Assembly (NCBI GenBank): GCA_965223665.1
Contig: OZ245011.1
Coordinates: forward strand, 2,144,001 to 2,208,000
Source of the DNA: Nitrospinaceae bacterium
GTDB taxonomy: Bacteria; Nitrospinota; Nitrospinia; Nitrospinales; Nitrospinaceae
Direction of reading: 5' to 3'
DNA length: 64,000 bases
Positions within the stretch are counted from its first letter, which is position 1; the number at the start of each line of letters is the position of its first letter. Under the pieces are notes generated by a model. That model ran no database searches. It worked only from the letters and a program-made list of their open reading frames with translations, and was not told the DNA's origin. Position numbers and translations under genes: made by a program. Positions 10,666 to 51,890 of the stretch are shown here, in pieces.

Positions 10666-11148
10666 ATGAAACGAATCTTGTTTACATTGCTATTGGCTGT
10701 GGTTCTTTGGGGTGGGATTGTGGCGGAGGGTGCGCTCGCGGCGGACCGGAATTACACGATCACAAACTGCAACCGTAAAAAACTGTGGGAGGATGTATCT
10801 AGCCGCATCCAGGTTCACAAACCCGAATTGATTGAGTACCTTAAAGAAAACATTAAATCCGATAAAGAAAGACCCCAATTAAGCGAATCCGATTACAAAG
10901 TTATTGAGGAATTTGACAAAAGTATTCAATGGCACGTCTCGGAATGTATTTTATTTATGAGAGAAGCCAATCAATTAATCGATTCCATTTATAAAGTTAA
11001 TTCTGAAAATGCCGACAATATTTCTTGGTATTTTATTGATTTATTTTCACGAAAAGATATCCCTTACATAAGACTTTGGAATAGGAATACTGAAAAAAGA
11101 TCCTTTTCCTTTAACTTTTCTCCTTTAGAACCTGAAAAAATTTATTAA
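10666..11148 (+). CDS. Secreted two-Cys immunity-like protein, copy 1
   Basis: Sec signal peptide (..ALAA/DRNY), NC.R..LW and W..SECIL motifs shared by 12 paralogs; 38-nt convergent overlap with an SLT remnant. Confidence 0.8.
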   Translation: MKRILFTLLLAVVLWGGIVAEGALAADRNYTITNCNRKKLWEDVSSRIQVHKPELIEYLKENIKSDKERPQLSESDYKVIEEFDKSIQWHVSECILFMREANQLIDSIYKVNSENADNISWYFIDLFSRKDIPYIRLWNRNTEKRSFSFNFSPLEPEKIY

Positions 11149-11916: not shown

Positions 11917-11947
11917 ATCAGAATTATTTTTGATACAATTGGTAGTT

Positions 11948-12430
11948 ATGAAACGAATCTTGTTTACATTGCTATTGGCTGTGGTTCTTTGGGGTGGGAT
12001 TGTAGTGGAATCTGCGCTGGCGGCAGACCGGAACTACAAAATCGAAAACTGCGATCGCAAAAAACTATGGGAAGGTTTTTCAATTGAACTGCAAATTGAA
12101 AAACCGGAACTGATCGAATTTTTAGATAAATATGTTAAACCTACAAAAGAAGCTCCTAAATTAAACGAATCCGACTACAAAGATATTGAACAGTTTGACC
12201 AAAAATTTCAATGGAATGTTTCTGAGTGTATATTATTTTTTAAAGAAGCAAATCAATTAATAAATTCTGTCTATGAATTGGACAATAAGCAAGCTACTAA
12301 TATTTCTTGGGTGTTTACTTATTTATTTTCAAGAATGGACATCCCCTATGTCGACTTTTACAATAGAACTACGGACAAATGGTCTTTTACCTTTAACTTT
12401 GCGCCTTTAAGGCAAGGAAAAACTTATTGA
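11948..12430 (+). CDS. Secreted two-Cys immunity-like protein, copy 2
   Basis: Close paralog of copy 1; ATG 11948; 38-nt overlap with the 3' end of 12393..15701. Confidence 0.8.
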   Translation: MKRILFTLLLAVVLWGGIVVESALAADRNYKIENCDRKKLWEGFSIELQIEKPELIEFLDKYVKPTKEAPKLNESDYKDIEQFDQKFQWNVSECILFFKEANQLINSVYELDNKQATNISWVFTYLFSRMDIPYVDFYNRTTDKWSFTFNFAPLRQGKTY

Positions 12431-15400
12431 TACCCTTTTGCTTGTCCCCATCTAAATACTTACTAACAATTTCATATTTTTCGTGATCTCCTTTTTTCTT
12501 AATTTTTTTTGCCTGTTCCCTAGCTCTTTCTATCGCAGACTTTCCGTATAAAAACTCTCCAATCACAAAGGCCAAAGGATTTTTGGTTTTGTTGTATTTC
12601 TTCCACAACCGACCAAACAAATACGCTTCCACCAACTTGATTTGCTCAACCGGGTTTTTCATGACATCGTCAACGTTAAAGTTCAATCCCTCCACCTTCA
12701 ACAGGTTCACCGCATCCACCATGGTCTGCACCTTCGGTCGGGTCAGTTGGAACAAGCCTTTCTCTCCAGTTGACTTCACCAACTTCGGGTTGAGTCCCGA
12801 TAACATCTGCCCCAATGCACCCAACGTCCTATTGATCTGCCGGTCCGCCACCTCATATTCAAAGGGCGCGGTCTTGGTGACTTGATCAAAACTTTGAATG
12901 ATCTCCCGCTCACTATTAAAACTCACAGCACCCACTTTCCAATCCCCTTGCTGCGCGAACAATTCCGGAGCGCGGCCTTGTTTATCGCGGATAATTCCAT
13001 CGATCAAATTCCCCACCGGTGCGCGAGCCCCTTGTGGAAGGCTGTTTAACATTTCATCTTTTCCGTCCTTTAAGGTTTCCCCGGTCATTCGATACGCATT
13101 TTCGGCCAATACCGTCAGATTATATACCGTACCCTCCGTAAACATCAGGTAATCTCCCAGGCGCACTTTACCTTCTTCCCCTTCCATTTCCTCTTTGAAA
13201 ACTTCCAAAGATTCTTCATCCATTCGCATGACCTTCGGAGCTTTCTTATGAGCCAACGCCTTGTGGACCACCGTCGGCGGCTTGTTTCCATCCGCTATTA
13301 TTTGTTGAACTCCTCCGGCGGGCGTCAGGGCATCCAGCGGAAAAAATTTCGATACACTTTTACCGATCACATCGGCGACGTGTTCATTTTGCACAAGTTC
13401 TCCCTTACCGTTCCAAACCATGATCGCTTTCCGGTCCTGCTGCAAACGTGCTTCATAAACTTCGGCAATGTTTTGCATGGTCAGTTCTTTGTTTTCCCGT
13501 TTGAGTTTTTCCCCAATGGCATTACGCATACTCTCCGGAAGAGCGATCAGGTCCTTCACAAACACCTTCTTGTCCCCTACATTGACATAGGAAGAAAGAA
13601 TCTCCTTGTTCGTCAACTCAACTATCCGGCGGCTGACACCATTTATAAATACTTTGTCATGAAACAGACTATTCATGTAATAAGACATTTCTTTTTCACT
13701 GGGTTCCCGACCTAATTTTTCCTTAAAGTTTTTAAACTTAATTCCTAAAAAAGCATTGGCTCTATCGAAAACATTTTTACGAGTTTCCCGACCCAGGCCA
13801 TTGGCTTTAGCAATGCCCGACAACTTGTTTTGAAAGTTCGCCTTTTTTTCAAGAGAGCTTTCGGACTGAACCGTCTTTTGCCATTGTTTAAAGTTATCCA
13901 CCGTCCAATGTTTTTGAATCAGTTCGTTCAGTCGGGTCTCATCAAACACTTCTTCAAAGGAGCCGCCCTCTGACAATACTTTTTGTAAAACGTCCGTCAA
14001 GACCACGTTTCTAAACTCCGGGTCAAAGTTCACCGACTCCACTTTTTGGCTTAGCGTTCGCAACAGATTCAGTTTATTTTGCAACCGCGTTTTCACCACA
14101 TTGATATCCCCAACCTGCTGTACCTCTCCCTGTTCCGAGTTTTGAACGATTCGTTGATCTTCCTGAATCCCTCCTATAAATTCGTATAGCTTCGAGCGAA
14201 ACTTTCCTTTTTCGTAATGATTCACATCGAATTGATACGCGAAGTTTTTCGCGGGATCCCGGTCACTTAACAAAATGTTATCCACCCATCCCCCAACGGT
14301 TCGGGATTCCTGCTTCAACACGTAATGAGAATTTTCTTCTTTCGCCGATTCCTTAACTTGACCCTGAGACGCAATATCATTTTGGGTAGAGACCAATGTG
14401 GCGGCAGTTCCATCTGCACTGTCTTCTTCAAGGTTCACATCCAGCGAAGTTTTAAACGGCCGTCCGTCATCCACCGCCAATACCGCCTTCCCCGTGAATT
14501 GAGGGGGTTGAAACTCCGGGTCACCCTGCGTGCGCTCTTTGAGTTGCGCCTTCATTACCTGCTTCGTTTTTTCATCTAAAGAATTAAAATCCGGATGGTA
14601 ATGCAAATCCACCAGCGTGGGACTCGTCGGACTGTCCCAAATAAACTTGAAAACCTTCTCACTGTTATCATAGTTCAGTTTTAATTGTTTTCGCTTCTCC
14701 TCCAGATTCCGATGCACCAGTAACTGCCGGGTCATCTCCAACTCTTCCGGATCATCAATATGCCGGAGTTCCTCCTGTTGCTCTTCTTCCGGCAAGGACT
14801 CCAGCACCACCACATTGTGCTGAGCTTTTTCCAGAGTCACCCTTTCCTTAATCCGCGCTTCCAGTTGCGCTTTGTCGGTTTTGACAAACTTGTTTTGATT
14901 CTCCTTAAAAAATTGCTCCGCCTCTTCCCCTTGCTGGCGGTCCAGTAAGCCGTTAACCACACTCAGGGCCACCGCTTCTTCAATATTGGCGGTTTCCGCC
15001 TGGTCCCGTTCCTCACTCCACTCCATCGCCACTTTCATTTGACCCATGGTTCGGTACAAACTCACAATGTGTTTTTCTCTTCCATCAACATCGAGCGGAT
15101 TATCACGTATCGCTTTCAGCAAAGCGGCACGCGTGTGCTGGTAATCCTGAATCAGAGCCCGTTTCCGCTGAGTTTCTTCATACACTCCAGCCCGTTGAAA
15201 CAAATCTGCAAATTTTTGTTTTAAAATGGGCTCATACTCTTTCCGCACATACGACCGCATACCCCCTAACGCATTTTGGAGAGCCTGAAATTTTTCCGAG
15301 GCCGTATCCAATCCGTACTTTTCCATGAGTTCCGGATCCGTCGTGACGGTGGCACTTTCACTTGTAGTCGTATCAGCCGGTTCGAACAAAGGTTTTACGA

Positions 15401-15701
15401 TCTTAACAAGCGCATCCGTGTAGCCAAAACTCCTCTCTCCTTTCAAGGGAGCCAACGTTTTCATTACACTTTCTACATACTCGGTCGTCGCTTTATCTGC
15501 TTTCATTACGGATTGACCATCCGACCTGCGTCTTTGCACGTCCATGAATACAGCCGCTTCGCCTAAAGTGTCACTGAGTGCGGCCAGATTGCGCACTTTC
15601 GCTCCACCGACCAGTTCCGGCGTGACATTCAAACGCAACTGGCCGCCCCCAAGGGATTGGGGATTCACGGTGGGGTTATTTAACGCGGGGATTTTGGGCA
15701 T
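12393..15701 (-). CDS. Large ejection/internal-virion-like protein with C-terminal degenerate SLT domain
   Basis: Position downstream of capsid genes; helical N-part starting MPKIP; C-terminal SGLNP...GEKGLFQL...NPVEQI SLT-like motifs; AGGTGA RBS before ATG 15701. Confidence 0.65.
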   Translation of the reverse strand: MPKIPALNNPTVNPQSLGGGQLRLNVTPELVGGAKVRNLAALSDTLGEAAVFMDVQRRRSDGQSVMKADKATTEYVESVMKTLAPLKGERSFGYTDALVKIVKPLFEPADTTTSESATVTTDPELMEKYGLDTASEKFQALQNALGGMRSYVRKEYEPILKQKFADLFQRAGVYEETQRKRALIQDYQHTRAALLKAIRDNPLDVDGREKHIVSLYRTMGQMKVAMEWSEERDQAETANIEEAVALSVVNGLLDRQQGEEAEQFFKENQNKFVKTDKAQLEARIKERVTLEKAQHNVVVLESLPEEEQQEELRHIDDPEELEMTRQLLVHRNLEEKRKQLKLNYDNSEKVFKFIWDSPTSPTLVDLHYHPDFNSLDEKTKQVMKAQLKERTQGDPEFQPPQFTGKAVLAVDDGRPFKTSLDVNLEEDSADGTAATLVSTQNDIASQGQVKESAKEENSHYVLKQESRTVGGWVDNILLSDRDPAKNFAYQFDVNHYEKGKFRSKLYEFIGGIQEDQRIVQNSEQGEVQQVGDINVVKTRLQNKLNLLRTLSQKVESVNFDPEFRNVVLTDVLQKVLSEGGSFEEVFDETRLNELIQKHWTVDNFKQWQKTVQSESSLEKKANFQNKLSGIAKANGLGRETRKNVFDRANAFLGIKFKNFKEKLGREPSEKEMSYYMNSLFHDKVFINGVSRRIVELTNKEILSSYVNVGDKKVFVKDLIALPESMRNAIGEKLKRENKELTMQNIAEVYEARLQQDRKAIMVWNGKGELVQNEHVADVIGKSVSKFFPLDALTPAGGVQQIIADGNKPPTVVHKALAHKKAPKVMRMDEESLEVFKEEMEGEEGKVRLGDYLMFTEGTVYNLTVLAENAYRMTGETLKDGKDEMLNSLPQGARAPVGNLIDGIIRDKQGRAPELFAQQGDWKVGAVSFNSEREIIQSFDQVTKTAPFEYEVADRQINRTLGALGQMLSGLNPKLVKSTGEKGLFQLTRPKVQTMVDAVNLLKVEGLNFNVDDVMKNPVEQIKLVEAYLFGRLWKKYNKTKNPLAFVIGEFLYGKSAIERAREQAKKIKKKGDHEKYEIVSKYLDGDKQKGINKFFLALKAQS

Positions 15702-15815
15702 AAAGTTCACCTGAGTTGAGTGTTACACGGTTTGTTTGAAATTTCCTAAAAAAAGTTTCGATTACAATGTTTATTCCATTGACATCATTTTCAAAGAGTC
15801 CTATATTATTCACAT

Positions 15816-15942
15816 GCCGCCTCGTGCTCATCCCTCCTCTGCAGTCTCACTGGATGTGATTTAGTTTGGGATTGCTTATGAAGCAGGGATGTCAGGTCCA
15901 GGGACATCTAAGGCGTTTGTGGGGGCGCTTTCGCGAGGCGGC
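15816..15942 (+). ncRNA. Putative structured ncRNA, unit 1 (type A)
   Basis: TTGACA(15779)-17-TATATT promoter; closing stem GCCGCCTCGTG/CGCGAGGCGGC; three internal hairpins; loop CTGGAT complementary to loop GTCCAG. Confidence 0.75.
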
Positions 15943-16100
15943 TCCGGATTCTCTCCTTCCCCATTTATTCTAATTTTGATTCTTACAATCATTTAGAAAA
16001 CTCGGGGTTACCTGCTGGTAGATTTTCGGAAAGTGGTTCCATTTTCGTTTTCCGAACAGTTAGTATTGACACGATCATTGAATAATCCTATAGTAATCAT

Positions 16101-16230
16101 AAGCCGCTTCGTGCTCTGCCATCAAGAGCATGCTGACTAGGTTATTTTTTTCAGTATAGCTTTGGAAAGTAGGGGCATCCAGTCTAGGGGTGCCTGAAGT
16201 GTTTGTGGGGGCACTTCCTTGGAGCGGTTT
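16101..16230 (+). ncRNA. Putative structured ncRNA, unit 2 (type B)
   Basis: TTGACA(16066)-17-TATAGT; closing stem AAGCCGCTTC/GGAGCGGTTT; loops CTAGGT/GTCTAG complementary. Confidence 0.72.
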
Positions 16231-16293
16231 AAATTTCGTTTTCCGAATATTTAGTATTGACACGATCATTTAAAAATCATATATTATTAACAT

Positions 16294-16423
16294 GCCGCTT
16301 CGTGCTCATCCCTCCTGGATAATCTCACTGGACGCGTTATCATTGGGGTTATCTACCAAGCAGGGGTGTCAGGTCCAGGGACATCTAAGGCGTTTGTGGG
16401 GGCGCTTTCGCGAGGCGGCTCCA
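16294..16423 (+). ncRNA. Putative structured ncRNA, unit 3 (type A)
   Basis: TTGACA(16257)-17-TATATT; same fold; loops CTGGAC/GTCCAG; closing stem followed by TCCA. Confidence 0.75.
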
Positions 16424-16581
16424 GATTCCCTCCTTCCCCATTTATTCTAATTTTGATTCTTACTATCATTTAGAAAACTCTGAATTCCCTGCAGGTGGAA
16501 TTTCAAAAAGTGGCTCAAATTTCGTCTTCCAAAAAAAAAATGGTATTGACACGATCATTGTAAAATCATATATTATTCATA

Positions 16582-16705
16582 AGCCGCTTCGGACTCTAAC
16601 GCCAGGGACTTTACTGACTAGGCCTTAATTCAGTATTAGTTTCGACAGGAGGGACATCAGGCCTAGGGATGTCCAAAAGTGTTCGGGACACTTTACGAAG
16701 CGGTT
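16582..16705 (+). ncRNA. Putative structured ncRNA, unit 4 (type B)
   Basis: TTGACA(16546)-17-TATATT; closing stem AGCCGCTTCG/CGAAGCGGTT; loops CTAGGCCT/AGGCCTAG (8-bp complementarity). Confidence 0.75.
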
Positions 16706-16769
16706 GATATATTTCTTCTTCCGAATTTCTTGTTGACACGATCATTTAAAAATCATATATTATTCACAT

Positions 16770-16896
16770 GCCGCCTCGTGCTCATCCCTCCTGGGTAATC
16801 TCACTGGACGCGTTATCTTTGGGGTTACTTGTGAAGCAGGGATGTCAGGTCCAGGGACATCTAAGGCGTTTGGTGGGGGCGCTTTCGCGAGGCGGC
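16770..16896 (+). ncRNA. Putative structured ncRNA, unit 5 (type A)
   Basis: TTGACA(16733)-17-TATATT; same fold; ends 45 nt from the stop codon of the convergent 1112-aa gene. Confidence 0.75.
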
Positions 16897-16941
16897 TCCG
16901 GATTCTCTCCATCCCCTTTTATCTAATTTTTATTCTTACAC

Positions 16942-19900
16942 TCAATTAGAAATCTCGGAATTTCCTGCTGGTGGGTTTTCAGAAAGTGGTTCCATTTTTC
17001 CCTTCTTCACTTTATTTTTTATGTAGTTTCCGGACTCAGGAAAACTACTTCTAACTGTATAAAATGTCTCCTTTTCTTCTATAAGTTCTAGAACGGCTAT
17101 TTTTCCCTTACCATTTCTTTTAACTATAATCACGGCTCCATTAGATTTTTGATAAAGCGCTTCAGTATAATTTTTTGTAATATCATAAACAAATTCAGTA
17201 AGGTTTTTGTACTCTGGAAAGTCCCTAAGAATCTTTTCAACTCTGTTAGGGGTTGCCTCAATATGGATACGACCAAAATCATTATCACCTACTTGAAATC
17301 TAATTTTATGTGCCGGAACTTTTCTTCCAGACGGAGTATACATTTCTTTCATTTCCCCAAAGTCGATTCCCCCATCCGGTGATTCCACAAAAGCCTTCGG
17401 GCCCATTCGGATGGAGCCTCTTTCGGAGCGGAGCCACTCGGGAACGGCTTCTACAAAACCGGAACGTTTGACTTCTTTTATGAACTCGACCAGGTGTTTT
17501 ACCCCTTTGCCGGTCAGTTCAAACGCTTCGCCCATGGCTCCGCCTTCGACCACGTTCTTCAGGGCTTTTTCCAGTTCGCTGTCGTCGATTTTCGAGGCCA
17601 GGAAATCGGTAAGAGGATTACGCAGTTCGGGGGCCATTTCGTTGAACAGGTTGGAAAGGTTCTGATCCCGATCCACCGTCAGCAAGTCCGCCGCGATGCC
17701 CGCGATCACGTTCCCGGAACTAAAAAATTCTTTCGACAACACCGCATTTCCCTTGGCAAAGATTCTACGACTGACCAGAAATCCCAACGCAAACGAAAAC
17801 AGTCCGCGAGCCATTTGCACGCCGGGGTTGCTGGAGGCTTCCATCCGCTCCATTTCTATGGGCATGCGTCCGCCGATTCCCCAGTCGTCCAGCCATTCCT
17901 GAACTGTGGTGTTACCGATTTTCAAATCCCGCAGGTCCTGTCCCAGCTCCGTCACCAGAGTCAACAAATTGATCGCCGCATCTTTCGTTCCACCGACGAC
18001 AATGTTCTCGGCCTGGCTCAATAAGCTTTCTTCCCGCCGAAGTTCGGTGTTATCCATACCTGCCAATCGAATTTTAAAATCTCCTCCAAGGGCAACGCCA
18101 TTCGCAAGAGTGACCTGCTTCCCCTGAGACTGAAGTTCTTTTACAAAGATTTCTTTTTTCTCCGGCGGCAATTGCAATAGATTCACGTATTCCTCAAAAC
18201 TGATGTCCTGTTTATTAAACCGGGCATTTTCTCTCAGGGTTTTGTTCTGACTCAAATGGGTCGCAAAATCAGGGATCGATAACTCGATGTCCGTTCCGGG
18301 ATTTAGTGAATTCAATTGCGAGGCAAGGTCGGGAACATTTTGAATAAGATCTTTAAGGTCCAATCCTTCAGTCTCCAGAGCCTGTTGAAACGTTTCCCGA
18401 TTAATAAACACTTTTGGCGTTTGGCTCCCGAAAACCTCAGGATGGTTTTCAACCACTTCTCCTATGTACTGCTTCACTCTTGCGCGGGCGACTCCCTCCG
18501 GCGGCACATCTTTGACCGCTTCATGAATATCCTCCAACATTCTTTTCGTGAGAATAGGCTGATTCGGGTTCGGCTCTGTTCGCTGAGGCAGTCTCAATGG
18601 GGAATTGCCTGTGGAGACCCGGGTCCCTTCGATGAGCGCATTTTCCGGAGAATTATTTTTTATACTATTCCTGGGTAATGGTGGACTTATGGTTTTACTG
18701 GTCCCCTTTGAAGATTTTGGCATCACTTTTTTCAATATCAATTGGGGAACTCCTTCGGCAAATGCTTTATACACCGCATCCGTGGCTTTATCCAATACCT
18801 GTTGTAACCGCTGGGTCGGCGATAACAAAGATCCGGGTTTTTGGGGATCGGATTCCACCGCCATTTCTTTACCCAATTCACTGAAAAATGACTGTAAAAC
18901 ATTTTTTTCCATTTCTTCCGTGATCCCCTGGCTGGTCTGATTGATAGCCTTCAGTAATTTTTTTCCTTTTTTACTGGTCAAAAATGTTTTGATTCCATCC
19001 GAGATATATTTTTTGGAAGCTTTGGAGAGCGGTTTGGTAAAAATCTTCCCGCCAAAAAATTCTACCGCCGCATTGATGGTAGCCACATTGAAGGCAATCG
19101 GTTTGGCCAATTCCATAGAGGTTCCATTCATTACCAGTTCAGCAATCGTCGTTCCATATTGGGTTTTCCAGGTATCGTACGCATCACCGCCTCTGATTCC
19201 CAACCCAAACCCCGTCAAACCGAAAGCCGGTAACGTGACGGCTTCTTCGGGAAGAAAATTGAGTCCCGGAAAATTTCCCAGAATCAGGGATAACTCCACA
19301 CCCGCCAGTGCTCCCGTAAAACCGCCTGTCAACAATTCAGGAGATTTGTGTGCGATATTTGTAAATACTTCCGCGACATTAAAAACCGTTCCGGTCCCCT
19401 TGTTTTGACCCATTAACCGTTCCAAATTTTTAATTTTGTTGAGTGCGGCATCAAATTCTTCCTGGGTGCGACCAGGCTGACTCATGTAATTGCCAATTTC
19501 TGCCCGCTTTCGAAAATAGCCAACAAACTTCATCGCTTTGCCCACATCAATCACGCCTTTTTCAAACACACCTAATTTCCCGACCCTGCCAAAGTCCATT
19601 GAAAAATAATTGAAGTCTTCGGTCATCTTCTTCTGCAATACAGTAGTATCTTTGAAAACCTCTGCGGTCCTTTGGTGATTCCATTCCTTTTGGGCATTTT
19701 GGAAATCGTTTTTTATGATTTCAACCGGTATATCCAGTTTGCGCGATAGAAACTGGATTTGCGCCGCATGTTCCGGAGACACTGAAGAAGAAACCAAAGT
19801 GAATGGGTTTTCCGGCTGTTCATTACGAATAGAACGTTTCAATCCCATAGCGCCATCATAGAACGCGCCAAGTCCTAATCCTCTATCTTCGGATTGTTTG

Positions 19901-20280
19901 TCAAAAACAACTTCTTCCAGAACAGTGGGTGGCCCCACTTGGGCATGCACCTCCCCCTGAGACGGGTTGGACGGAAGATCGCTTTCACCGGTCCCCGGTT
20001 CATTGACATTCAGTCGATTTCCCTGATTACCAAAGTCACCTTTCATTCCTGCATCAAATGGCTCGGTTGAAGACGAGCTATTCGAGCGGCCTAAAGAAGC
20101 CAATTGAACGGGGTCCCCTTCAGAGGGTTCTGTGGAAGGTTCGTTGCCCTCGAATCTCTGTCCAGGATTCGGTGGGTTTAATGGAGATTCTAAAGTATCA
20201 GTATCTTCATCGATGGAGTCCGCTTCTACTGAAACGGAGGATGCCCGTGAAGTGGGTTGTTTTTTAATTTTGATGCCCAT
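16942..20280 (-). CDS. Large ejection/internal-virion-like protein with putative C-terminal BECR-fold (PBECR-like) RNase domain
   Basis: Acidic disordered N-terminus and Gly/Ala-rich hydrophobic helices. C-terminal ~140 aa (IRFQVGDNDFGRIHIE...IAVLELIE...YTVRSSF) resembles phage barnase/colicin-E5-like nuclease domains, recognised by eye. Confidence 0.55.
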   Translation of the reverse strand: MGIKIKKQPTSRASSVSVEADSIDEDTDTLESPLNPPNPGQRFEGNEPSTEPSEGDPVQLASLGRSNSSSSTEPFDAGMKGDFGNQGNRLNVNEPGTGESDLPSNPSQGEVHAQVGPPTVLEEVVFDKQSEDRGLGLGAFYDGAMGLKRSIRNEQPENPFTLVSSSVSPEHAAQIQFLSRKLDIPVEIIKNDFQNAQKEWNHQRTAEVFKDTTVLQKKMTEDFNYFSMDFGRVGKLGVFEKGVIDVGKAMKFVGYFRKRAEIGNYMSQPGRTQEEFDAALNKIKNLERLMGQNKGTGTVFNVAEVFTNIAHKSPELLTGGFTGALAGVELSLILGNFPGLNFLPEEAVTLPAFGLTGFGLGIRGGDAYDTWKTQYGTTIAELVMNGTSMELAKPIAFNVATINAAVEFFGGKIFTKPLSKASKKYISDGIKTFLTSKKGKKLLKAINQTSQGITEEMEKNVLQSFFSELGKEMAVESDPQKPGSLLSPTQRLQQVLDKATDAVYKAFAEGVPQLILKKVMPKSSKGTSKTISPPLPRNSIKNNSPENALIEGTRVSTGNSPLRLPQRTEPNPNQPILTKRMLEDIHEAVKDVPPEGVARARVKQYIGEVVENHPEVFGSQTPKVFINRETFQQALETEGLDLKDLIQNVPDLASQLNSLNPGTDIELSIPDFATHLSQNKTLRENARFNKQDISFEEYVNLLQLPPEKKEIFVKELQSQGKQVTLANGVALGGDFKIRLAGMDNTELRREESLLSQAENIVVGGTKDAAINLLTLVTELGQDLRDLKIGNTTVQEWLDDWGIGGRMPIEMERMEASSNPGVQMARGLFSFALGFLVSRRIFAKGNAVLSKEFFSSGNVIAGIAADLLTVDRDQNLSNLFNEMAPELRNPLTDFLASKIDDSELEKALKNVVEGGAMGEAFELTGKGVKHLVEFIKEVKRSGFVEAVPEWLRSERGSIRMGPKAFVESPDGGIDFGEMKEMYTPSGRKVPAHKIRFQVGDNDFGRIHIEATPNRVEKILRDFPEYKNLTEFVYDITKNYTEALYQKSNGAVIIVKRNGKGKIAVLELIEEKETFYTVRSSFPESGNYIKNKVKKGKMEPLSENPPAGNSEISN

Positions 20281-26251: not shown

Positions 26252-26731
26252 ATGAGACCGATCTTGATGACATTTGTAGTTGTTGGCTTGCTATTAGGCA
26301 GCGCCTCTTTGGGAAGTGCCGCTGATCAGAATTACATTATCGAGAACTGCGATCGCGAACAACTTTGGGCGGAAATTTTGAAGGATATTCGTTGGCGCGC
26401 CCCGGAAGAAACCAAGTTCATTGAAGAACATATTCAACCAACCAAAAATCGCCCCAAGCTGAGTGAAAAAGATTACCAAGACATCGAGAAAATGGATAAA
26501 GACATTCGCTGGTATGCCTCCGAATGCATTTTGCTAATGAAAGAAATCAATAAATTTTTGGGGGCGATTCATTCTAAAAACCCCAATATGGGTTCGCGGT
26601 TAGCCTTTACAATTGATGGGACCTTAGTTAAATTTGAAATCCCATTTGATAGATCCTTCAATCGACAAAATAACCTTAAACCTTTCTTTGAATTTAAATA
26701 TTACCTTTATATGCCTTTCGGAAAGCTTTAA
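26252..26731 (+). CDS. Secreted two-Cys immunity-like protein, copy 3 (orphan)
   Basis: Paralog family motifs; followed only by a ~25-nt remnant of an SLT gene 3' end. Confidence 0.8.
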   Translation: MRPILMTFVVVGLLLGSASLGSAADQNYIIENCDREQLWAEILKDIRWRAPEETKFIEEHIQPTKNRPKLSEKDYQDIEKMDKDIRWYASECILLMKEINKFLGAIHSKNPNMGSRLAFTIDGTLVKFEIPFDRSFNRQNNLKPFFEFKYYLYMPFGKL

Positions 26732-26808
26732 GATATTCTGCCGGGGATAAGTTATTCAGGCCTGGTTATTTAGTCTTGATTGATATCTGTGTGATATAAA
26801 ATTTGGTT

Positions 26809-27288
26809 ATGAGACCGATCTTAATTTTATTAATAGTTACCGGCTTACTTATGAGTGTGCCACAAACCGGAAACGCTGCCGATCAGAATTACATTATTGA
26901 AAACTGCGACCGGGAATGGCTTTGGGCTGAAATTTTGAAAGACATTCGCTGGCGAGCACCGGAAGAATCTAAGTTTATTGAGGAACATATTAAACCCACC
27001 AAAAATCGCCCAAAGCTTACAGAAAAGGACTTCCGGGATATCGATAAAATGGACAAAGAAATCCGTTGGTATGCCTCCGAATGTATTTTACTGATGAAAG
27101 AAATTAATGAATTTTTGGGGGCTATTCATTCTAAAAATTCCCGAATGGGATCACGATTAGCATTTACAATTGATGGCACTTTAAATAAGTACGATATTCC
27201 TTTTTTCAGGGATTTTAATAGAGAAAACAATCTAAAACCATTTTTCAATTTTAGGTATTATCTTTATAAGCCTTTCGGAAAGCTTTGA
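26809..27288 (+). CDS. Secreted two-Cys immunity-like protein, copy 4
   Basis: Very similar to copies 3, 8 and 12; 38-nt overlap with the SLT pseudogene. Confidence 0.8.
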   Translation: MRPILILLIVTGLLMSVPQTGNAADQNYIIENCDREWLWAEILKDIRWRAPEESKFIEEHIKPTKNRPKLTEKDFRDIDKMDKEIRWYASECILLMKEINEFLGAIHSKNSRMGSRLAFTIDGTLNKYDIPFFRDFNRENNLKPFFNFRYYLYKPFGKL

Positions 27289-29269: not shown

Positions 29270-29752
29270 ATGAAGCGAATCTTGTTTACATTGTTAATGG
29301 CTGTGGTTCTAATTGGTGGGATTGTGGTGGATGGTGTGCTGGCAGCCGACCGGGACTACAAAATCAAAAACTGCCAACGCACTAAAGTGTGGCCGGAGAT
29401 ATTGGATCATATTCGTTTAGGCAATCCAGAGTTAAAAGATTTTATTGAAAAAAACATCAAACCGACTCGGGAAGATCCATTATTGAGCAAGGACGACTTT
29501 CAAGAAATTGAACGGTTGGATAAAAACATTCAGTGGTATGCCGCCGAGTGTGTCCTTCTAATGAAGGAAATAAATATCTTAGTCAAAGCAGTTCATGAAG
29601 TAGATCCTGAAGAAACATTTTTTATTGCCAATCCAATTTATAGAATACTTGGAAAACTTAAAATTCCTGTTATAGTAAACTCCAAGGGAGTTAATGATCT
29701 TGCTGTTTTCTCTTTTAACTTCTCTCCTTTTTCTCCGGAAGAAACTTATTAA
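29270..29752 (+). CDS. Secreted two-Cys immunity-like protein, copy 6
   Basis: Family motifs; closest to copy 7; 38-nt convergent overlap. Confidence 0.8.
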   Translation: MKRILFTLLMAVVLIGGIVVDGVLAADRDYKIKNCQRTKVWPEILDHIRLGNPELKDFIEKNIKPTREDPLLSKDDFQEIERLDKNIQWYAAECVLLMKEINILVKAVHEVDPEETFFIANPIYRILGKLKIPVIVNSKGVNDLAVFSFNFSPFSPEETY

Positions 29753-30448
29753 CCATTTCTTTAATTTCATTTGGTATTTTTTGCAGGACCAATTCAAAGT
29801 TTATTTTTTTTCCTACATTTTGTCCATTTACATTCTTTAAAATCCGGTCCATGGGTTTTTCTCCAAGAAAAAAATTAATTAAAGCAAACCCAAAAGGATT
29901 GTCCGTATTGTTATTATATAGAGGCTTATAATATTTGGTTAACAACCAAACCGCTCCCTCGATGTTTTCGAAGTTGTTGTTGAGGATGTCTTTCTCTGAA
30001 TAGCCCAGGTCACTTTTGGTGGCGATGATCTTCGCCTGCCGTGGCGTGAGCGCCATCGGCCCACGAGGAATCTCCTTATCCCGCACTTTCCATTTCACTT
30101 CCGACCGGTCCATCGCTAACTGCTCGAACAATTTCCGCCTTTCTCGAGTGACGGGTTTCGATTGATATGAACTCCCACCCAAAGACACATCCACCGCCTC
30201 GGCCCCTGCGAAAACCCTGCTTCTATTGCTTTGAACACCGAATCGAGATCGGTATTTTTTGAAGAAGAGAAAGCAAACACGTTTTGGATCGCTTCTGAGG
30301 TTTTACTTTTCCATTTTGCCGACCCGGTTCGCGGCAGGGTATAGCGCATCTCCATTATATTTTGATAGGTGATCGATTTGCCCTGCTCCATTAATCGGAA
30401 ACCGATGGCTTCCAAACCATCCTCCGAAAGGTGCAGCCCTTCACCCAC
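29715..30448 (-). pseudogene. Orphan, frameshifted C-terminal part of an SLT-tailed ejection-like protein
   Basis: Two overlapping ORFs (30116..30448 and 29715..30194); KWKVRDKEIPRGPMALTPRQA..NIEGAVWLL aligns with the C-terminus of 31009..34293. Confidence 0.7.
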
Positions 30449-30563: not shown

Positions 30564-31046
30564 ATGAAACGAATCTTTATTACAATTATAATGGCTGTGG
30601 TTCTATACGGTGGGATTGCGGTGGAATGTGCGGTGGCGGCAGACCGGAACTACAAAATCGAAAACTGCAACCGCAAAAAAGTCTGGACGGAGGTTTTTGA
30701 TTATATTAATTGGAATAATCAGAATCTTAAAGTATTTATAGAAAAGAATATAAAACCTACCAAAGAGGATCCAAAATTAACTGAAGATGACTACAAGCAA
30801 ATTGAACAACTGGATAAAAATATTCAGTGGTTTGCATCTGAATGCGTTCTATTAATGAAGGAAATCAATGTTTTGATAAAGGCAGTACATGAAGTTGATC
30901 CAGAACAAACTTTTTATATTGCTAATATAATTGAAAAAAATCTAAATAAGGAACAAATTCCATCATTGTGGAACTCTAAAGGTGTAAATGATCTAGCGGT
31001 TTTCTCTTTTAACTTTGCTCCCTTTTCTCCGGAAAAAAATTTTTAA
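30564..31046 (+). CDS. Secreted two-Cys immunity-like protein, copy 7
   Basis: Family motifs; 38-nt convergent overlap. Confidence 0.8.
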   Translation: MKRIFITIIMAVVLYGGIAVECAVAADRNYKIENCNRKKVWTEVFDYINWNNQNLKVFIEKNIKPTKEDPKLTEDDYKQIEQLDKNIQWFASECVLLMKEINVLIKAVHEVDPEQTFYIANIIEKNLNKEQIPSLWNSKGVNDLAVFSFNFAPFSPEKNF

Positions 31047-34000
31047 TTAATCTTTTATAGTTTTCTGGTGCTGTCTCGATAACTAAATCTAGTTTTAATT
31101 TTGTTCCTTTTGCACTTCCTTCCACCTTTTTCTGAGCTTCACTCATTAATTTATCCCCAACCAAATAATGCATTAACGCAAAGCCCATTGGATTATCGGT
31201 TACATCCCTGTAAAAAAGTAAATAATAATTTACCAATAGCCACGTGGCTCCTGCAATATTTTTTCTCGGGTCCGTTAAAATATCATCTACCGAATAATTC
31301 AAACCACTTTCTTTAGCAATTATTTCAGCCTGCCTTCGTGTCAAGCCCATTACTCCCTGTGGAATTTGTTCGTCTCGGACTCCCCATTTTATACGGGAAG
31401 ATTCGTTGGCCATTTTTAAGAGTACAGTTTTCCATGGCCCAAGGTTCACTCCCGTATTGTCTTTATTGCGACTCAATCCTTCGTTGATGACTGCCGCCAC
31501 AGAATTCGCATCTCTCAAATCAAACTTGGCAGGTTGCGGCTGCGCCTTGTTTCCTCGCTGCGCGAACAGTTCCGGAGCGCGGCCTTGTTGTTTATCGCGG
31601 AGGATGTTATCGAGTAAACTTTCTACTTTCCGGACCGCCTTCTCGGAAACTTGTTTTCTTACATCCTTCAGAATCTCACTTTTACTCTGTTTCAATTGTT
31701 CTGCCGACATGCGAAAAGCGCTTTCTACCGGGAACGTTATGTTCTTCAACTGATTGCCGTCAATCATCACATAATCGTTCCGCGCAAACTTCCCCTGCTT
31801 TTCATCAAACACATCACGGAACCCGGCCCAGGCCGCTGCATCCAACTTCCCTATGATCACTTCCGAGTTCTGTTGTGTTCGTGGATCACCGGGATTCAAA
31901 TTACGCTGCTTTCCCTGCTCAATGAGCTTCTTAAGTTTCTGCGAAAATCCCTGACCGCGCACAATCCCCTGTGGAGTGTATGTTTCATCGATAACTTCGC
32001 CGATGCGCTCTCTTGCGATCACCGCTCCCGAAGGATCTTTCACCGGTTTTAAAGTTCGATCGCTGGAAAACTTTTCCAGGAACATCCGACCCAGGTTTTC
32101 CCGTGTAATCAGAATTCCCTTCCTCTTCAATTCCCTTCGCATCGCCCCCAGGGTCGGTCCCGGCAGAGAATCAATATCTCGGACTCTCACCTTTTTGTCA
32201 TCCACCCAAACATAAGCCAATGGTTTCTGTTCTTCATCTAACTCGGAATAAAATTTGCCGGGCCCTATATGGTGCAACCCCTCCAAATGCACCCGATCGT
32301 TCAGTAAACTTTCCGCAAAAAATCTCTGGTCGCTTTCCGTAAACTTTGGACCCGCTTTTCTTTTGATACGGGCAAACTCTTTTTGCAAAGTATGCTTCGC
32401 AGTATCAATCGATTCTTTAGGAACCAGGGAAATTAAAGGAACGGTTTCAAGGGAGTGTTCAAACATCTCATTGAAAGCATTTGGATCGACTGCGTTAATA
32501 ATCTGAGTCCATTCATTATAATTTTTTTCATTCAATTGAGATTTCACCCAGTCATTCAGTTGAGATTCTGTATAGTTATACTCCGATTGAATTGCAAGAG
32601 GCACAATAGTCTTCATCATATGGGCAAACCCAACCTCCTGATAATTGTCCCCAATGTCTTCCTTTTCAAGCCTCCTTGCAATTGCCTGCACCAGATTGAT
32701 TTTCTTTTGATACTGCTCCTTCACTCTTTGTCGATCCGCAACATTTTGCAGCTGACCCGGATTCTAGATCAGCCGATGGTCTTCCTGCATTCCATTTAAA
32801 AATTCTGAAAGGACCGGGTCAAATTTATTGTATTGATGAACACCGGAGCCGAAGTACAGGGAAAACTTATTCTGCAGATTCGGGTTATCCGACGTGGCCA
32901 AATCCATCAAAGGCTTATAAGCGTTTGCCTCCTTTTGCAGTTTGAGTAACAACTCATCTCTTTTCCGGTTCGCATTGTTTTGCTCAGAAGTTCCCCCTGC
33001 CGGAACAGCTCCCTGTGTAAAATCCTCCGGGTTGATTTCCGTCGACAGTGAAACCGGTTGGCCTCGGTCCACGGCCAATTCAGCATGACCGGTAGCTTCA
33101 GGGGAAAGCGGGGGTTGTGTACCTTTCAACCGGAACTCGATAATTTCTTCCAAAGCCTCTTGGGTTTCTTTACTGACGAGAGGCCATTCCGATCGCTTTT
33201 TCAAATCGGTCAACGAGGGAACTACCGGGCTTTCGGCAGCAAATTGAAACAAGGATTCCTCATTCTCGTATTTGGCGGTATATTCTTTTAACGTGTTTGT
33301 GTATTGTTGGTGATCCCTTAACTTTTCAGTCATCTTCCGTTCTTACGGATCGTCAATATTCCGGAGAGCTTCCTGTTGTTCTTCCTCCGTCAGGGACTCC
33401 AGCGCTGCCACATTGTGCTGGGCTTTATTCATCACCACCTGCTCCCGGATTCTCGCTTCGAGTGGTTCCGTATCGTTCGTTTTAAATTCTTTTTTATGCG
33501 CGGTAAAATATTCCTGCGCTTCTTCAGGTTGTTCGGATTTCAACATACTTTCAATCACCGTCAGGTTCACCCGCTCCAACACTTTTCCCTTTTCCGCAGC
33601 GACCCGTTCATCGCTCAATCCCATCGAAACCTGCAACATTTCAATGGAGCGGTTGATGACCTCAATTTCATCTTCGATCACTTGAGAATCTAAAGGATTT
33701 TTTCGAATCGATTCCAGAGAGGTGCGCGCCGTGTTCTGGTGATTTTGAATTACAGACCGTTTCCATTGCACTTCTTCATAGTCCCGCATTCCATCCAACA
33801 ACCGGGAAATTTTCTTTTCCAGAATCGGTTGGTATTCTTCGCGCAAATACTGCGGCATCTCGGCAAAACCTTTTCGTAGAGCCTGGAAATTTTCCGAGGA
33901 CGAATCCAACTGATACGTTTCCAACAGTTCCGGATCCGGGTCTGCAAAGTCTACGGGTGTTCCATCGGAAGGCTGATCCAACAAAGTTATAAATCTTTGA

Positions 34001-36648: not shown

Positions 36649-38139
36649 TTAACTTTGAAAAATCTTTCTATTTTTTAATGCGTTGTAGTTTCGGCGTTCG
36701 TTTTGGGAGCCGGCGGTTCCAAAGGCGGACTTTTTAAACGCTACCGGATAGGCAAAGGTGAGTGCCAACGCATCGCCACGATTCGGCGAAGCCAGCCCGC
36801 GTTCCTTCATCTGCTCTTTACTTTCCAGTTGAATTTTTCCATCGGGTCTTGGTACGGTTTCGGGTCCGATTAAATCCTGATACAACACATCATCTTTCGG
36901 AATTGCCCCGCCCTCCTGCAGCCATTTCTTAACACCGCCCCACATTTCGGCCCGCTTGTTTAAAAACCCTGCATCGTTCGCCTTCTCCCCAAACCATACC
37001 AACTGCCAGTTGCGCTGCATGGTTCTGCCGGCGCTCACTATACCTGTCCCATAACCGGCATCGACAAATACGGCATCGGCTTGAAGCTCGTCTTCCAACC
37101 GGGCAATGAGGTTGGCCACTTGAATATCGTTGTCGTTTTTGGGAATGGTCCGCAGTATTTTAAAATATAATCCCTGCCGCATGGCGATGACCAGTTCATC
37201 GTCGCCACCCCAGGCGGGATCGCAGGCAATAATCTTCGGCGCATAATTGTATTGCTCCGGTTTTAGATGCTTGCCCAGTGCCGCGTCCACCCACTCTGTT
37301 GAAATAAACTGCCTGGCCGAAACTGCGGGAAACATGCCGCGCACGCGGACTTTAACGAAATCCGAATCCTCTCCGTAATCGTCAATCCATTTTTGAATTT
37401 TGGCTTTGTTGGTGATGGCCACCTGTCGCGAGTCGATTTGATAACTTTTCCAACGGTGGCGAAAGCGTCGCCAGCATTCGCGGAAGCGCCCGGTGTTGCG
37501 AGTGGGATTTCCAAACGCGGCCCAGATCATTTCGGTATCGCTGTCGGTGAGCGCGCCTTCGGACACCTCCCAAATTGCATCGGGAATGGCCGAGCCTTCA
37601 TCAAAGATGAGAAGAATCCGTTTGCCTTTATTGTGCAAGCCGGCAAACGCCTCGCTCCGTTTCTCCGACCAGGGAATAATATCCATGCGCCAGGTCTTGG
37701 CGTGATCAGGATCCACCGAATGATAACTGGTCGCTTCCAACTGGAAGAAACTTTTGTAAGCACTGAGGCGATGCCACTTTTCCAACTCCGCCCAGGTTTT
37801 GGTCTTCAATTGATTCTCTGTATTCGCGGTGACCACGCCGCGAGTGTCCACTTTGGTGGTCATGCCCCAGTCGATGACCCACGCCACCAGTGCAGATTTC
37901 CCGACACCATGTCCCGAGGCGACAGCAATTTGGATCGCTTCACCGGGAGTGAGCAACCCGTCGCGGATTTCTTTCAGCACTTGAATTTGCCACGGTTCGG
38001 GTCCGGTGTGATCTTTCAGTTCGCCTTCACCCCACGGGTAGGCAAACAAAACGTACGCGTAAGGGTCATGTTCGAACTCGGCGATGGCATCGATGAGTTG
38101 ATCGAGCGTTTCCAGTTCCTGTTCAATCACTGCTGGCAT
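36649..38139 (-). CDS. terL: Terminase large subunit
   Basis: ASGHGVGKS Walker A, IFDEGS Walker B, FGNPTRNTGRF, DPAWGGDD, SPNRGDALALTF. Likely start MPAVIEQ at 38139. Confidence 0.95.
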   Translation of the reverse strand: MPAVIEQELETLDQLIDAIAEFEHDPYAYVLFAYPWGEGELKDHTGPEPWQIQVLKEIRDGLLTPGEAIQIAVASGHGVGKSALVAWVIDWGMTTKVDTRGVVTANTENQLKTKTWAELEKWHRLSAYKSFFQLEATSYHSVDPDHAKTWRMDIIPWSEKRSEAFAGLHNKGKRILLIFDEGSAIPDAIWEVSEGALTDSDTEMIWAAFGNPTRNTGRFRECWRRFRHRWKSYQIDSRQVAITNKAKIQKWIDDYGEDSDFVKVRVRGMFPAVSARQFISTEWVDAALGKHLKPEQYNYAPKIIACDPAWGGDDELVIAMRQGLYFKILRTIPKNDNDIQVANLIARLEDELQADAVFVDAGYGTGIVSAGRTMQRNWQLVWFGEKANDAGFLNKRAEMWGGVKKWLQEGGAIPKDDVLYQDLIGPETVPRPDGKIQLESKEQMKERGLASPNRGDALALTFAYPVAFKKSAFGTAGSQNERRNYNALKNRKIFQS

Positions 38140-38647
38140 CTTTTGCTTTCTGCAAACGTTCGGCGATGCGGTCGGCAAGGCCGTGTTTAAAATCGACTTC
38201 GTGCTTTTGCACAAACATTCCCAGGTGGTCTGCCAGAATTTTTAAGGAACGAATTTTATCGTGAAGCTTGAACTTGATGGTGCTGCCTTTGTCGTTCAAG
38301 GTGGCGTTGATTTCAGCGACAGCGGCCATTTGTTCGCGGGACAGTTTATCTTTAGCAATCATCGTCGCTTCATGCGAGTTCCAGTCTAAGTAGTCCCCAA
38401 CATTGGCAAACGCGACGTTGACCAATTCATCGAGAACGCGATCCTGTGTGATCTCCGTTCGCTGCGACAATTTGGCCTTGCCTTTTTGAATCGCTTTCTG
38501 AATTTCCGGCAATGCCATAAGCTTCCCCACGTTGGGTCCGGCAAACTTTTTGGCGTATCCGGCGCGGATGTAGGCTTGCGTGGCATTTAAATCCACCAGG
38601 TACTCTTCCACAAACCGCTCCTGCTTTAACGATAATTTTTTAGCCAC
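38123..38647 (-). CDS. terS: Terminase small subunit
   Basis: KQERFVEEYLVDLNATQAYIRAGY, IKFKLHDK...L..HLGMF. Confidence 0.93.
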   Translation of the reverse strand: MAKKLSLKQERFVEEYLVDLNATQAYIRAGYAKKFAGPNVGKLMALPEIQKAIQKGKAKLSQRTEITQDRVLDELVNVAFANVGDYLDWNSHEATMIAKDKLSREQMAAVAEINATLNDKGSTIKFKLHDKIRSLKILADHLGMFVQKHEVDFKHGLADRIAERLQKAKDASSD

Positions 38648-39165: not shown

Positions 39166-39198
39166 GATATTCTGCTACCTGTGATAAAATGCTTTGTT

Positions 39199-40681: not shown

Positions 40682-40755
40682 TTTTTATCCTTGTTCTAAA
40701 AATAACTTTTTAGCCACTGCTTTAACGTGAAATTGATGTGATATAATATTTGGTT

Positions 40756-41229: not shown

Positions 41230-41246
41230 AAATTTTCTCAATCATA

Positions 41247-42591: not shown

Positions 42592-42665
42592 TTTCTATCC
42601 TTGTTCTAAAAATAACTTTTTAGCCACTGCTTTAACGTGAAATTGATGTGATATAATATTTGGTT

Positions 42666-51712: not shown

Positions 51713-51890
51713 TATCTTTTGTTATGCAAAGAACCCTTCATGAAAGGGGGAGCACATCCACTTTGTTTAAATACTTGTTGTATAGGGTTCATTGCAGAGT
51801 GATAGGAGACACTCTGGCAAAAGGGAATAATTTTATAAAACCCCTGGCGGCAAATCCCTCCAGCTCGGCCCCCGGCCGATTGGAAAATTG
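51528..51890 (+). repeat. REP-like repeat cluster
   Basis: Long form 51528-51690 plus partial copies at ~51735-51760 and ~51837-51890. Confidence 0.7.

Follow-up and report, generated by a model that had tools for sequence, protein, structure and literature searches.

A new structured RNA family in Nitrospinota, coupled to a probable RNase domain of a phage virion protein

A 64,000-nt stretch of a Nitrospinaceae bacterium genome (GenBank assembly GCA_965223665.1, contig OZ245011.1, positions 2,144,001 to 2,208,000; hereafter the window) carries a short array of repeated units inside a phage-derived island, which raises the question of what these units encode and why they lie against the 3' end of a virion protein gene. 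The array consists of five plus-strand units in the order A-B-A-B-A, set between minus-strand genes at 12393-15710 and 16942-20280. The analysis points to a genuine, new family of structured RNAs, whose covariation is unusually clear and which is genetically coupled to what is probably an RNase domain delivered by the virion, at the C-terminus of the protein encoded at 16942-20280. The RNA family, its transcription-unit design and its pseudoknot are established as far as sequence can establish them. We propose, with a probability of roughly 45%, that the RNA is an immunity factor or antitoxin for the virion-delivered RNase.

Architecture and covariation of the array RNAs

The units are defined by their promoters. 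The pattern TTGACA-17-TATA(T/G)T occurs on the plus strand at 15779, 16066, 16257, 16546 and 16733, each occurrence matching 11 of 12 consensus positions, and these five instances in the 64-kb window compare with 0.02 expected from shuffled sequence. They bear out the five alternating, self-promoted units that an earlier note on this DNA had described, and the A-B-A-B-A order is further backed by repeat families at a spacing of 476-478 nt and by alignment. In every unit of the window 8 nt separate the -10 box from the first base of the closing stem, P1. The promoter followed by 8 nt and GCNGC is found five times in the forward direction in the whole 4.35-Mb genome, always within the array, and a control pattern is not found at all.

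Promoter A1 (15779..15807, TTGACA-17-TATATT) precedes the A1 core at 15816..15942, and promoter B1 (16066..16094, TTGACA-17-TATAGT) the B1 core at 16103..16228. The remaining consensus-pattern promoters, A2 (16257..16285), B2 (16546..16574) and A3 (16733..16761), precede cores at 16294..16419, 16583..16704 and 16770..16896, the last of which ends 45 nt short of the convergent gene's stop codon. In array order the cores score 113, 133, 120, 101 and 123 bits with the RNA model. Units are 120-130 nt long and follow one another at intervals of 187-289 nt, all on the plus strand. The units are unlikely to code for protein, because the 52-amino-acid (aa) frames that start at an ATG in A2 and A3 are truncated in A1, and at the equivalent position of the B units a start codon is missing. 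A U-rich run follows P1 in most B-type units and in the Fb and H1 units, for which reason P1 may double as a terminator stem.

The RNA is predicted to fold, over 122-127 nt in the window units, into a four-way junction opened by the GC-rich strand of P1; the four-way fold and the stems listed in the earlier note were all located. P1 comprises 9-11 bp. The long hairpin P2 has 9-13 bp and a loop of 12-17 nt, the hairpin P3 has 7 bp and a 9-nt loop, and the hairpin P4 has 6-9 bp and a loop with GGG(G/A) as its invariable end. The start of the P2 loop (L2) is complementary to the P3 loop (L3) over 6-8 nt in all 11 units of this genome (G000) and its sister genome (G001), as in CUGGAU/GUCCAG of A1, CUAGGUU/AGUCUAG of B1, CUGGAC/GUCCAG of A2 and the 8-bp combination CUAGGCCU/AGGCCUAG of B2. 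The loop sequences fit pairing within one molecule or between molecules equally. Shuffling the loops of each unit reproduces the observed L2-L3 duplex in 1 to 128 of 2000 trials, so one unit alone is weak and the evidence lies in conservation across units. The structural evidence is likewise comparative, since single-sequence folding energies are unremarkable (z +0.35 to -2.78, some of them computed from coordinates starting 2 nt inside each unit).

Comparative support comes first from an alignment of 11 units, five from the window and six from the sister genome, which belongs to the same genus. Across P1, P3, P4 and the kissing helix, 96.7% of 330 cells hold standard pairs, a proportion that drops to 35-44% when the partners are slid by 1-3 columns, and 12 of the 30 pairs show double-sided changes. 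None of 500 shuffles matched the covariation score or the percentage paired and one matched the count of double-changed pairs, with the caveat that related sequences can beat such controls without any structure. P2 is misaligned between the two types, yet it folds in 11/11 units from different sequences (for example AUGCUGA/UCAGUAU, ACCUUGA/UCAGGGU and AAUCUCA/UGGGGUU). G-U pairs are numerous, present for instance in 10 of the 11 units at pair 74-96, and are compatible with the promoter strand only; the fold is therefore strand-specific and matches the strand on which the promoters lie.

More distant relatives extend this picture. The first RNA model (R1), scored unfiltered at the loci with the linked protein domain in two further genomes, gave three full-length matches in genome G025 and one in G034, bringing the family to 15 units in 4 of the 120 Nitrospinota genomes searched; the sister genome holds a syntenic five-unit array and a sixth unit, a singleton, elsewhere. 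The four distant units keep the same architecture despite scoring 15-30 bits with R1, and a second model built from them (R2) scores 127-144 bits on those units. Over all 15 units P3 is standard in 105/105 cells, with GC to AU, AU to GC and UA to CG swaps at 4 of its 7 positions. The five core kissing pairs are standard in 75/75 cells, through UA/CG, GC/AU and AU/GC exchanges that produce the helices CUGGA/UCCAG, CUAGG/CCUAG, CUAGA/UCUAG and CCGGG/CCCGG; the claim that loops 2 and 3 stay complementary while changing sequence thus holds in 15/15 units. Each of the 11 positions of P1 is paired in 12-15 of the 15 units, with a different sequence in the distant ones, where P2 also folds by inspection. 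In B-type and distant units the P2 arm may be closed by a further helix of 4 bp, P2a (CUGC/GUAG, CUCU/GGAG, UUCC/GGAG, CCCU/AGGG, CUCC/GGAG), which in A-type units competes with P3.

The promoter is kept along with the fold: TTGnnn-17-TATAnT ends 6-8 nt ahead of P1 in 14 of the 15 units from the four genomes, the exception being the sister-genome singleton, which has TTGACA-15-TATAAT. The spacer DNA around the promoters differs between families while their geometry stays. These observations bear on whether the array is a functional RNA at all, or instead a repeat acting at the level of DNA, as sites of recombination or replication, or a duplication in decay with inherited structure. Tandem duplication did carry gene fragments along as the array grew, and the caveat about relatedness and shuffle controls speaks for such a reading. 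We nevertheless regard it as very improbable, since the compensatory swaps separate lineages with little primary sequence in common, the slid-partner control collapses, the fold is specific to the promoter strand, the promoter geometry persists and the short reading frames do not.

No family catalogued in Rfam corresponds to this RNA. Rfam 15 returned no match in the window at gathering thresholds, in keeping with the earlier note, which had not recognised a known family. At E<=10 over 15500-17200 it gave only two chance-level rows, SNORD45 (16.7 against a threshold of 42 bits) and an opposite-strand cobalamin riboswitch (11.7 against 31.5), and nothing relevant appeared over the homologous loci. 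R1 over 102 genomes of the order found only this genome, its sister and a 28-bit partial match in G003 (L019 1501-1592, model positions 21-116), which we take as chance because P1, the promoter and the loop complementarity are all missing. R2 over the 120 genomes of the phylum gave no full-length match beyond G025 and G034, and one 22-bit partial match in G099. Distant-mode blastn of the array against 50,697 phage records gave no match, and pattern scans of viral contigs with f1-type and f3-type RNA motifs gave 0 stretches each. A pattern scan of genome contigs returned 36 stretches, which exceeded 100 bits with R1 only on one contig of a Nitrospinaceae metagenome-assembled genome, the other 33 loci scoring at most 21.8 bits; in metagenome contigs 34 stretches were found, none above 17.7 bits.

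Several specific identities were considered and set aside. The earlier note had suggested a tRNA mimic on the strength of a TCC(A/G) tail resembling an acceptor end. The tail does follow P1 in A1, A2 and A3, and in units g1 and g3 of the sister genome, and is absent from the other B-type units and the distant units, so it is not a conserved feature. ARAGORN found 0 tRNA or tmRNA genes in the window, and the kissing contact joins the adjacent hairpins 2 and 3, where the tertiary contact of a tRNA joins the loops of the first and third hairpins (D-loop and T-loop). The mimic idea is not supported. A sponge for CsrA was considered for CAGGGAUGU, a motif in the units that we take to resemble a CsrA site; it was rejected because B-type units have AGGGG, the motif mostly coincides with P3 and the kissing helix, and Rfam gave no Csr/Rsm match. 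Mimicry of the 16S rRNA 3' end by the C-rich P1-P2 junction (J1/2) of the A units was rejected because that segment is not conserved in B or distant units.

A C-terminal domain linked to the RNA genes

The gene convergent with the array (16942..20280, minus strand) encodes a 1112-aa protein that occupies the position of T7 gp15, an internal virion protein, in a BPP-1/T7-like prophage (phrog_6651, E 1.4e-8). We searched the last 385 residues of this protein against the 120 Nitrospinota genomes. The domain is present in four, G000, G001, G025 and G034, and in 4/4 of these genomes RNA genes lie on the opposite strand, convergent, 45, 0, 5 and 3 nt past its stop codon, measured from the end of P1. 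The linkage of the RNA to a nuclease-like domain on which the earlier note had staked its proposal is thus upheld in every genome with the domain and in two protein and phage contexts, with one RNA singleton excepted. This genetic linkage is the strongest support for an antitoxin-type reading, and is new here.

The linkage concerns the domain and not the proteins that bear it. In this genome and its sister, the domain ends proteins of 1112 and 1016 aa, encoded after a T7 gp14-like gene; only the last 366 residues are common to the two, at 71% identity, and on its far side the array borders different genes in the two genomes. In G025 and G034, from another family, the terminal ~135 residues end proteins of 480 and 464 aa, and the domain (residues 236-374 of the 385-aa query) is all that these share with the first kind of protein. 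The gene for the 464-aa protein is flanked by a portal gene and by a major-head gene that is of another type. That for the 480-aa protein lies in a truncated remnant beside terminase fragments and host genes, where no portal or capsid gene was found in the 20 kb examined and the RNA promoters and structure are intact.

The junction between RNA and gene has been duplicated. Downstream of the A1 core, the 3' extension at 15943..16060 (plus strand) carries on its complement what is left of the 1112-aa gene's final 23 codons (TVRKTKMEPLSENLPAGNPEFSK, then stop), a relic of tandem duplication. By alignment, the complement of the A2 extension (16420..16537, plus strand) is a decayed copy of the gene's 3' end (FFWKTKFEPLFEIPPAGNSEFSK, then stop). 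The A3 extension (16897..17013, plus strand) overlaps the gene itself and from 16942 is antisense to its last 23 codons and stop. Since the A-type extensions are decayed copies of these codons, the array grew by tandem duplication spanning the RNA-gene junction, and the junction is older than the array. In the sister genome, the gp15-like open reading frame (ORF; L091 1121-1260) runs ~45 codons past the stop of its counterpart here, and its end coincides exactly with the 3' end of P1 in the last RNA unit. A gene-end remnant of the type found here ('...FSK', then stop) survives in two inner units of the sister array.

Convergence of this kind would also suit antisense control or transcriptional interference, in which the array promoters fire head-on into the toxin-bearing late gene and silence it in the lysogen, oppose read-through into 12393-15710 as well, and use the RNA structure as a stabiliser or terminator. 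Every domain-linked array is convergent and comes to 0-45 nt from the stop codon, the A3 extension runs antisense through the final 23 codons and the A1 and A2 extensions are of similar sequence, and no clear terminator separates RNA from gene. Interference, however, needs neither a four-way junction nor a kissing loop, and both have been kept through many compensatory changes. Moreover, B-type and distant-family units have no antisense extension, the U-rich run after P1 in most B-type units, Fb and H1 could stop transcription ahead of the gene, and the sister-genome singleton faces no such domain. We consider this explanation unlikely.

The linked domain, the last ~140 aa of the 1112-aa protein (16945..17358, minus strand, inner boundary approximate), is probably a BECR-fold RNase of PBECR-like type. 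This prediction rests on the agreement of three weak independent leads, from ESM-Atlas, an AlphaFold model and a profile search, and it makes the RNase assignment of the earlier note plausible. Look-alikes in ESM-Atlas carry PBECR1 or PBECR3 at scores of 0.92-0.90; in the top clusters (score 0.92) the PBECR family is on 12-14% of members, and in the PBECR3 clusters ranked 9-10 (score 0.90) it is on 70-83%. The AlphaFold model of the domain (pLDDT 75.6, pTM 0.70) aligns best in VIA-align with the CdiA-CT toxin 7m5f_C (Z 6.0, rmsd 4.2, 104 aligned), followed by colicin D 5znm_B (Z 5.9), 8ey4_A (Z 5.5) and 1tfk_A (Z 5.3), and further at Z 4-6 by BrnT and then RelE/ParE/HigB/YoeB toxins, though all of these lie below Z 8, where a match may mean no more than a common arrangement. 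Of the top 37 structural rows, most are RelE/ParE/HigB/CdiA-CT toxins. A PDB sequence search with the domain gave no match (best E 1.9).

The profile search with the domain collected 607 clusters at E<=1e-3, many of them inside proteins of 2000-4700 aa. PBECR domains are described as predicted RNase domains that are fused to phage virion (polyvalent) proteins and presumed to enter the cell by injection (Iyer, Burroughs, Anand, de Souza and Aravind 2017, PMC5512222), and the occurrence of relatives inside such large proteins matches the polyvalent-protein habit described there. PBECR3 appears below threshold on the homologous stretch in 2 of 10 scanned homologues (28.4 and 19.3 bits against a cut-off of 30), and one of the 10 carries PBECR1 elsewhere in the protein. 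The domain proteins hold an invariant arginine (KIR). Relatives of the domain were absent from viral contigs when searched with the 385-aa piece and with a four-sequence alignment, and phage records gave no tblastn match to the domain sequences of two genomes or to a PBECR3-like relative.

The phage island and its putative effector-partner pairs

The array and its convergent gene belong to an island at 11000-48000 of the window, with a G+C content of ~45% (42-52%) against 38% for the chromosome. Its minus strand encodes a T7-type portal (Head-tail_con, E 4e-152), a protease/scaffold, a BPP-1-type capsid and a cement protein, and the island also holds a T7 gp14-like gene and the gene of the 1112-aa protein, which weakly matches an internal virion family. 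A terminase small subunit is encoded on the same strand at 38123-38647 (phrog_51, E 2.5e-36), and the adjoining 521-aa ORF, which matches phrog_5902 (E 7e-67, function not named), is a probable large subunit. The island is a podovirus-like prophage or a derivative of one; a derivative may be nearer the truth, as no integrase, replication or tail-fibre matches were found among the island ORFs scanned. Three adjacent TPR-repeat proteins (613, 495 and 312 aa) flank it at 49871-54474 (minus strand), and TPR proteins flank the G025 remnant too (L102 14109-18106). The terminase large subunit of G025 (L102 11408-13106) and that of G034 (L103 4666-6364) are each spread over three overlapping ORFs of 95, 129 and 377 aa; the identical split in two genomes suggests a conserved frameshift or an intervening element and not random decay.

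Six other minus-strand proteins of the island, including the 1105-aa protein to the left of the array, have a common C-terminal lytic-transglycosylase-like domain (genes at 12393-15710, 29715-30194, 31009-32724, 39644-40681, 41689-42591 and 43108-44037). The 3' end of each is overlapped by a convergent gene, by 38 nt or, in one pair, 44 nt. These partners belong to an 11-member paralogous family, proteins of ~160 aa that begin with a signal peptide and have conserved cysteines, whose plus-strand genes include 10666-11148, 11930-12430, 26252-27288, 29270-29752, 30564-31046, 38686-39687, 40750-41726 and 42660-43145. The arrangement looks like a system of effector-partner cassettes in a podovirus-like island. 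The 1112-aa protein has a different C-terminus and no ~160-aa partner; the RNA array stands in that position, which makes the earlier note's positional argument, that the array sits where protein partner genes sit elsewhere in the locus, a sound one. The sister island shows the same effector-partner design.

The RNA could instead be a positive partner of the domain: a cofactor, a folding or packaging chaperone, or an L2-L3 ring or scaffold like the packaging RNA (pRNA) of phage phi29, possibly co-packaged. L2 and L3 of one unit are mutually complementary in 15/15 units, a property that also lets pRNA form rings, and in a cross matrix the A-type and B-type loops form two classes that pair poorly with each other; linkage to a domain would suit any partnership. 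The element, however, has its small and probable large terminase subunits, so that no pRNA-type motor is called for, and the RNA matches neither the pRNA family nor any other Rfam family; on these grounds the earlier note's alternative of a phi29 pRNA-like packaging RNA is not supported. The RNA genes are, in addition, intact in the G025 remnant that has no portal or capsid gene in 20 kb, where an addictive or protective module fits better than an assembly factor, and sigma-70 promoters suggest expression outside the late programme. We see only a slim chance that the RNA acts as a positive partner.

Proposed role and known systems

In the immunity or antitoxin reading, the locus holds five copies, of two sequence types, of a new ~125-nt structured RNA, each of which would be transcribed from its own near-consensus sigma-70 promoter with a start at or beside the first base of P1. 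The RNA would fold compactly, its four-way junction locked through kissing of the loops of hairpins 2 and 3 over 5-8 bp. The 1112-aa virion protein would probably be ejected into cells, carrying its C-terminal BECR-fold RNase domain, and in cells that carry the element the RNA would bind and block the RNase, as an inhibitor or a substrate decoy. Protection would cover both virion assembly and incoming kin particles. Several strong promoters would supply a stoichiometric dose, with copy number raised by tandem duplication. A stoichiometric binder of the domain is suggested because the RNA is compact and pseudoknotted, its promoters are strong and of constitutive type, its units have been duplicated and its linkage to the domain is cassette-like, and also because it persists in a decayed element and possibly as an orphan copy.

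The possible orphan is the sister-genome singleton. It is directly upstream of, and co-directional with, a gene for a HEPN-domain protein (Pfam HEPN E 3.4e-6; 178 aa, L092 10224-10760, plus strand), and is convergent to a cluster made up of an ORF of gp14-like size, an SLT protein and a 1252-aa protein. We treat the adjacency to HEPN as unconfirmed, because in two other genomes the homologues of this HEPN gene lack an RNA of this kind (best model matches 9-10 bits) and this genome has no such HEPN gene. Also near the singleton, a 2727-aa RHS/YD-repeat protein (L092 1275-9458, minus strand) ends in a colicin-E3-type 'Cytotoxic' domain (Pfam E 1.3e-12). The singleton could be an orphan copy.

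A further possibility is a host-directed or defence-related small RNA whose synteny with the domain is merely inherited: an anti-defence decoy (an RNA anti-CRISPR, or an RNA that imitates an RNA antitoxin), a sponge for an RNA-binding protein or a prophage regulator. High copy number and strong promoters would suit a sponge or decoy, and the singleton-HEPN layout recalls RNA-antitoxin modules, AbiF-RCd22 and phage ToxI mimicry as these have been described. Simple synteny does not explain linkage across two unrelated proteins and head modules, however, and the HEPN homologues without the RNA, the lack of such a HEPN gene here and the absence of any CsrB/Rsm-type or abiF-motif match in Rfam speak against it. 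Nor are the units any closer to the host CRISPR repeat than shuffled repeats are, and no spacer matches the island beyond 15 nt. A host-directed role is, in our judgement, improbable. Mimicry of the repeat by an RNA anti-CRISPR is not supported by the same comparison: the best alignment score was 6-7 per unit (n=5) against shuffled means of 7.2-7.7, and 253-298 of 300 shuffled repeats scored at least as high. The host array itself lies outside the window (C1 ~2689245-2692700) and has a 32-nt repeat, which we take to be of type I-C, and 51 spacers.

Returning to immunity against the virion-delivered RNase, a number of observations weigh against it. That the domain cuts RNA, that the units are transcribed, and that the RNA physically binds the domain and neutralises it are all inferred. 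The convergent placement suits antisense control equally, and a consensus scan of the array found no canonical terminator. The singleton is not beside the domain, its neighbour being the 1252-aa protein, which shares only the upstream region of the 1112-aa protein. The family comes from 4 genomes, 2 genera and one phylum, and its array units are duplicates and not independent. The identity of the domain also bears on the case: besides structural Z scores that all fall short of 8, Foldseek returned nothing at E<=0.001 for the domain model, and Pfam gave no match on the domain itself, PBECR included, even at E 10. The histidine of the G(R/L)xH(I/L)E motif, kept in the two f1 proteins (1112 and 1016 aa), is a lysine in the two f3 proteins (464 and 480 aa), so that activity may differ or be lost there. 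Known BECR toxins are countered by immunity proteins. For virion PBECR domains, the passages of PMC5512222 consulted mention no immunity or RNA partner.

The immunity reading has precedent in kind, since RNA antitoxins that bind RNase toxins are described both for type III systems and for AbiF-RCd22. There is a substantial chance that, while the kind is known, the present case would be the first example of immunity by RNA against an effector that a phage injects. A larger claim is tentative: that this is the first RNA immunity factor for a phage-injected toxin domain, in which a kissing-loop-locked RNA silences a BECR-fold RNase; that RNA and domain form a two-part cassette moving between unrelated virion proteins; that duplication leaves orphan immunity copies; and that the whole island is a podovirus-derived delivery system in which each effector has a cognate protector, six transglycosylases with periplasmic partners and one RNase with an RNA.

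The locus yields a new class of structured RNA absent from Rfam, with four helices and a kissing contact supported by compensatory changes in only 15 sequences, and hence a good object for structural studies. For the question of what RNase domains do on phage virion proteins it offers a simple setting, with one domain, one small RNA and the A and B loop-specificity classes together. If the immunity reading is true, RNA antitoxins reach beyond ToxN- and AbiF-type toxins to the very large BECR/PBECR world, of which 607 clusters carry this domain profile. It also suggests a search rule, to look directly beyond the stop codons of toxin-domain genes for RNA genes that are convergent and have promoters of their own.

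Among known systems, phi29 pRNA is a phage RNA of ~120-170 nt with two mutually complementary loops whose complementarity is kept while their sequence changes. The array RNA shares the two complementary, changing loops. It differs in its four-way junction fold, its lack of an Rfam match and its setting in an element with a terminase and T7/BPP-1-type portal and capsid; it is linked to an RNase domain and not to a portal, and it persists in a remnant with no portal in the 20 kb examined. AbiF-RCd22 is described as a Clostridioides difficile prophage system in which an RNA neutralises an RNA-targeting toxin by direct RNA-protein contact. Like it, the array is a prophage-borne structured non-coding RNA, and the sister-genome singleton precedes a HEPN-domain gene in the same orientation. 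Unlike it, neither the window nor the homologous loci have an abiF-motif match in Rfam, the partner domain is not Abi_2/HEPN, and HEPN homologues occur in two other genomes without the RNA.

In its proposed working principle the pair resembles type III toxin-antitoxin systems, which comprise pseudoknotted RNAs in tandem copies. ToxIN, CptIN and TenpIN are described as occurring on mobile elements and prophages, with an RNA that neutralises an endoribonuclease toxin. Here, too, a pseudoknotted, multi-copy RNA is tied genetically to a predicted endoribonuclease. The partner, however, looks BECR-fold (colicin D/CdiA-CT/RelE-like) and not ToxN-like; no ToxN-type chain is among the best 50 structural rows listed, although a family outside those rows could still match. 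The toxin domain is the C-terminus of a large virion protein and not a free toxin. In place of ~36-nt repeats cut from one precursor, the units are 120-130 nt long with promoters of their own. Type III RNAs precede the toxin within one operon, whereas these RNA genes lie downstream of the toxin-domain gene and are convergent with it. The array would work like a type III system and is not a member of the class, from which repeat size, single precursor and gene order set it apart.

On the protein side, the domain resembles those of PBECR polyvalent proteins in having relatives inside proteins of 2000-4700 aa and sub-threshold PBECR3 matches in 2 of 10 homologues, and it differs in having no Pfam PBECR match of its own. 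The layout resembles that of colicin D/ImmD and CdiA-CT/CdiI, BECR-fold tRNases in which a modular C-terminal RNase and a partner encoded right after it move as a cassette. In those systems the partner is a protein; here the partner position is taken by opposite-strand RNA genes, and delivery would be by the phage particle.

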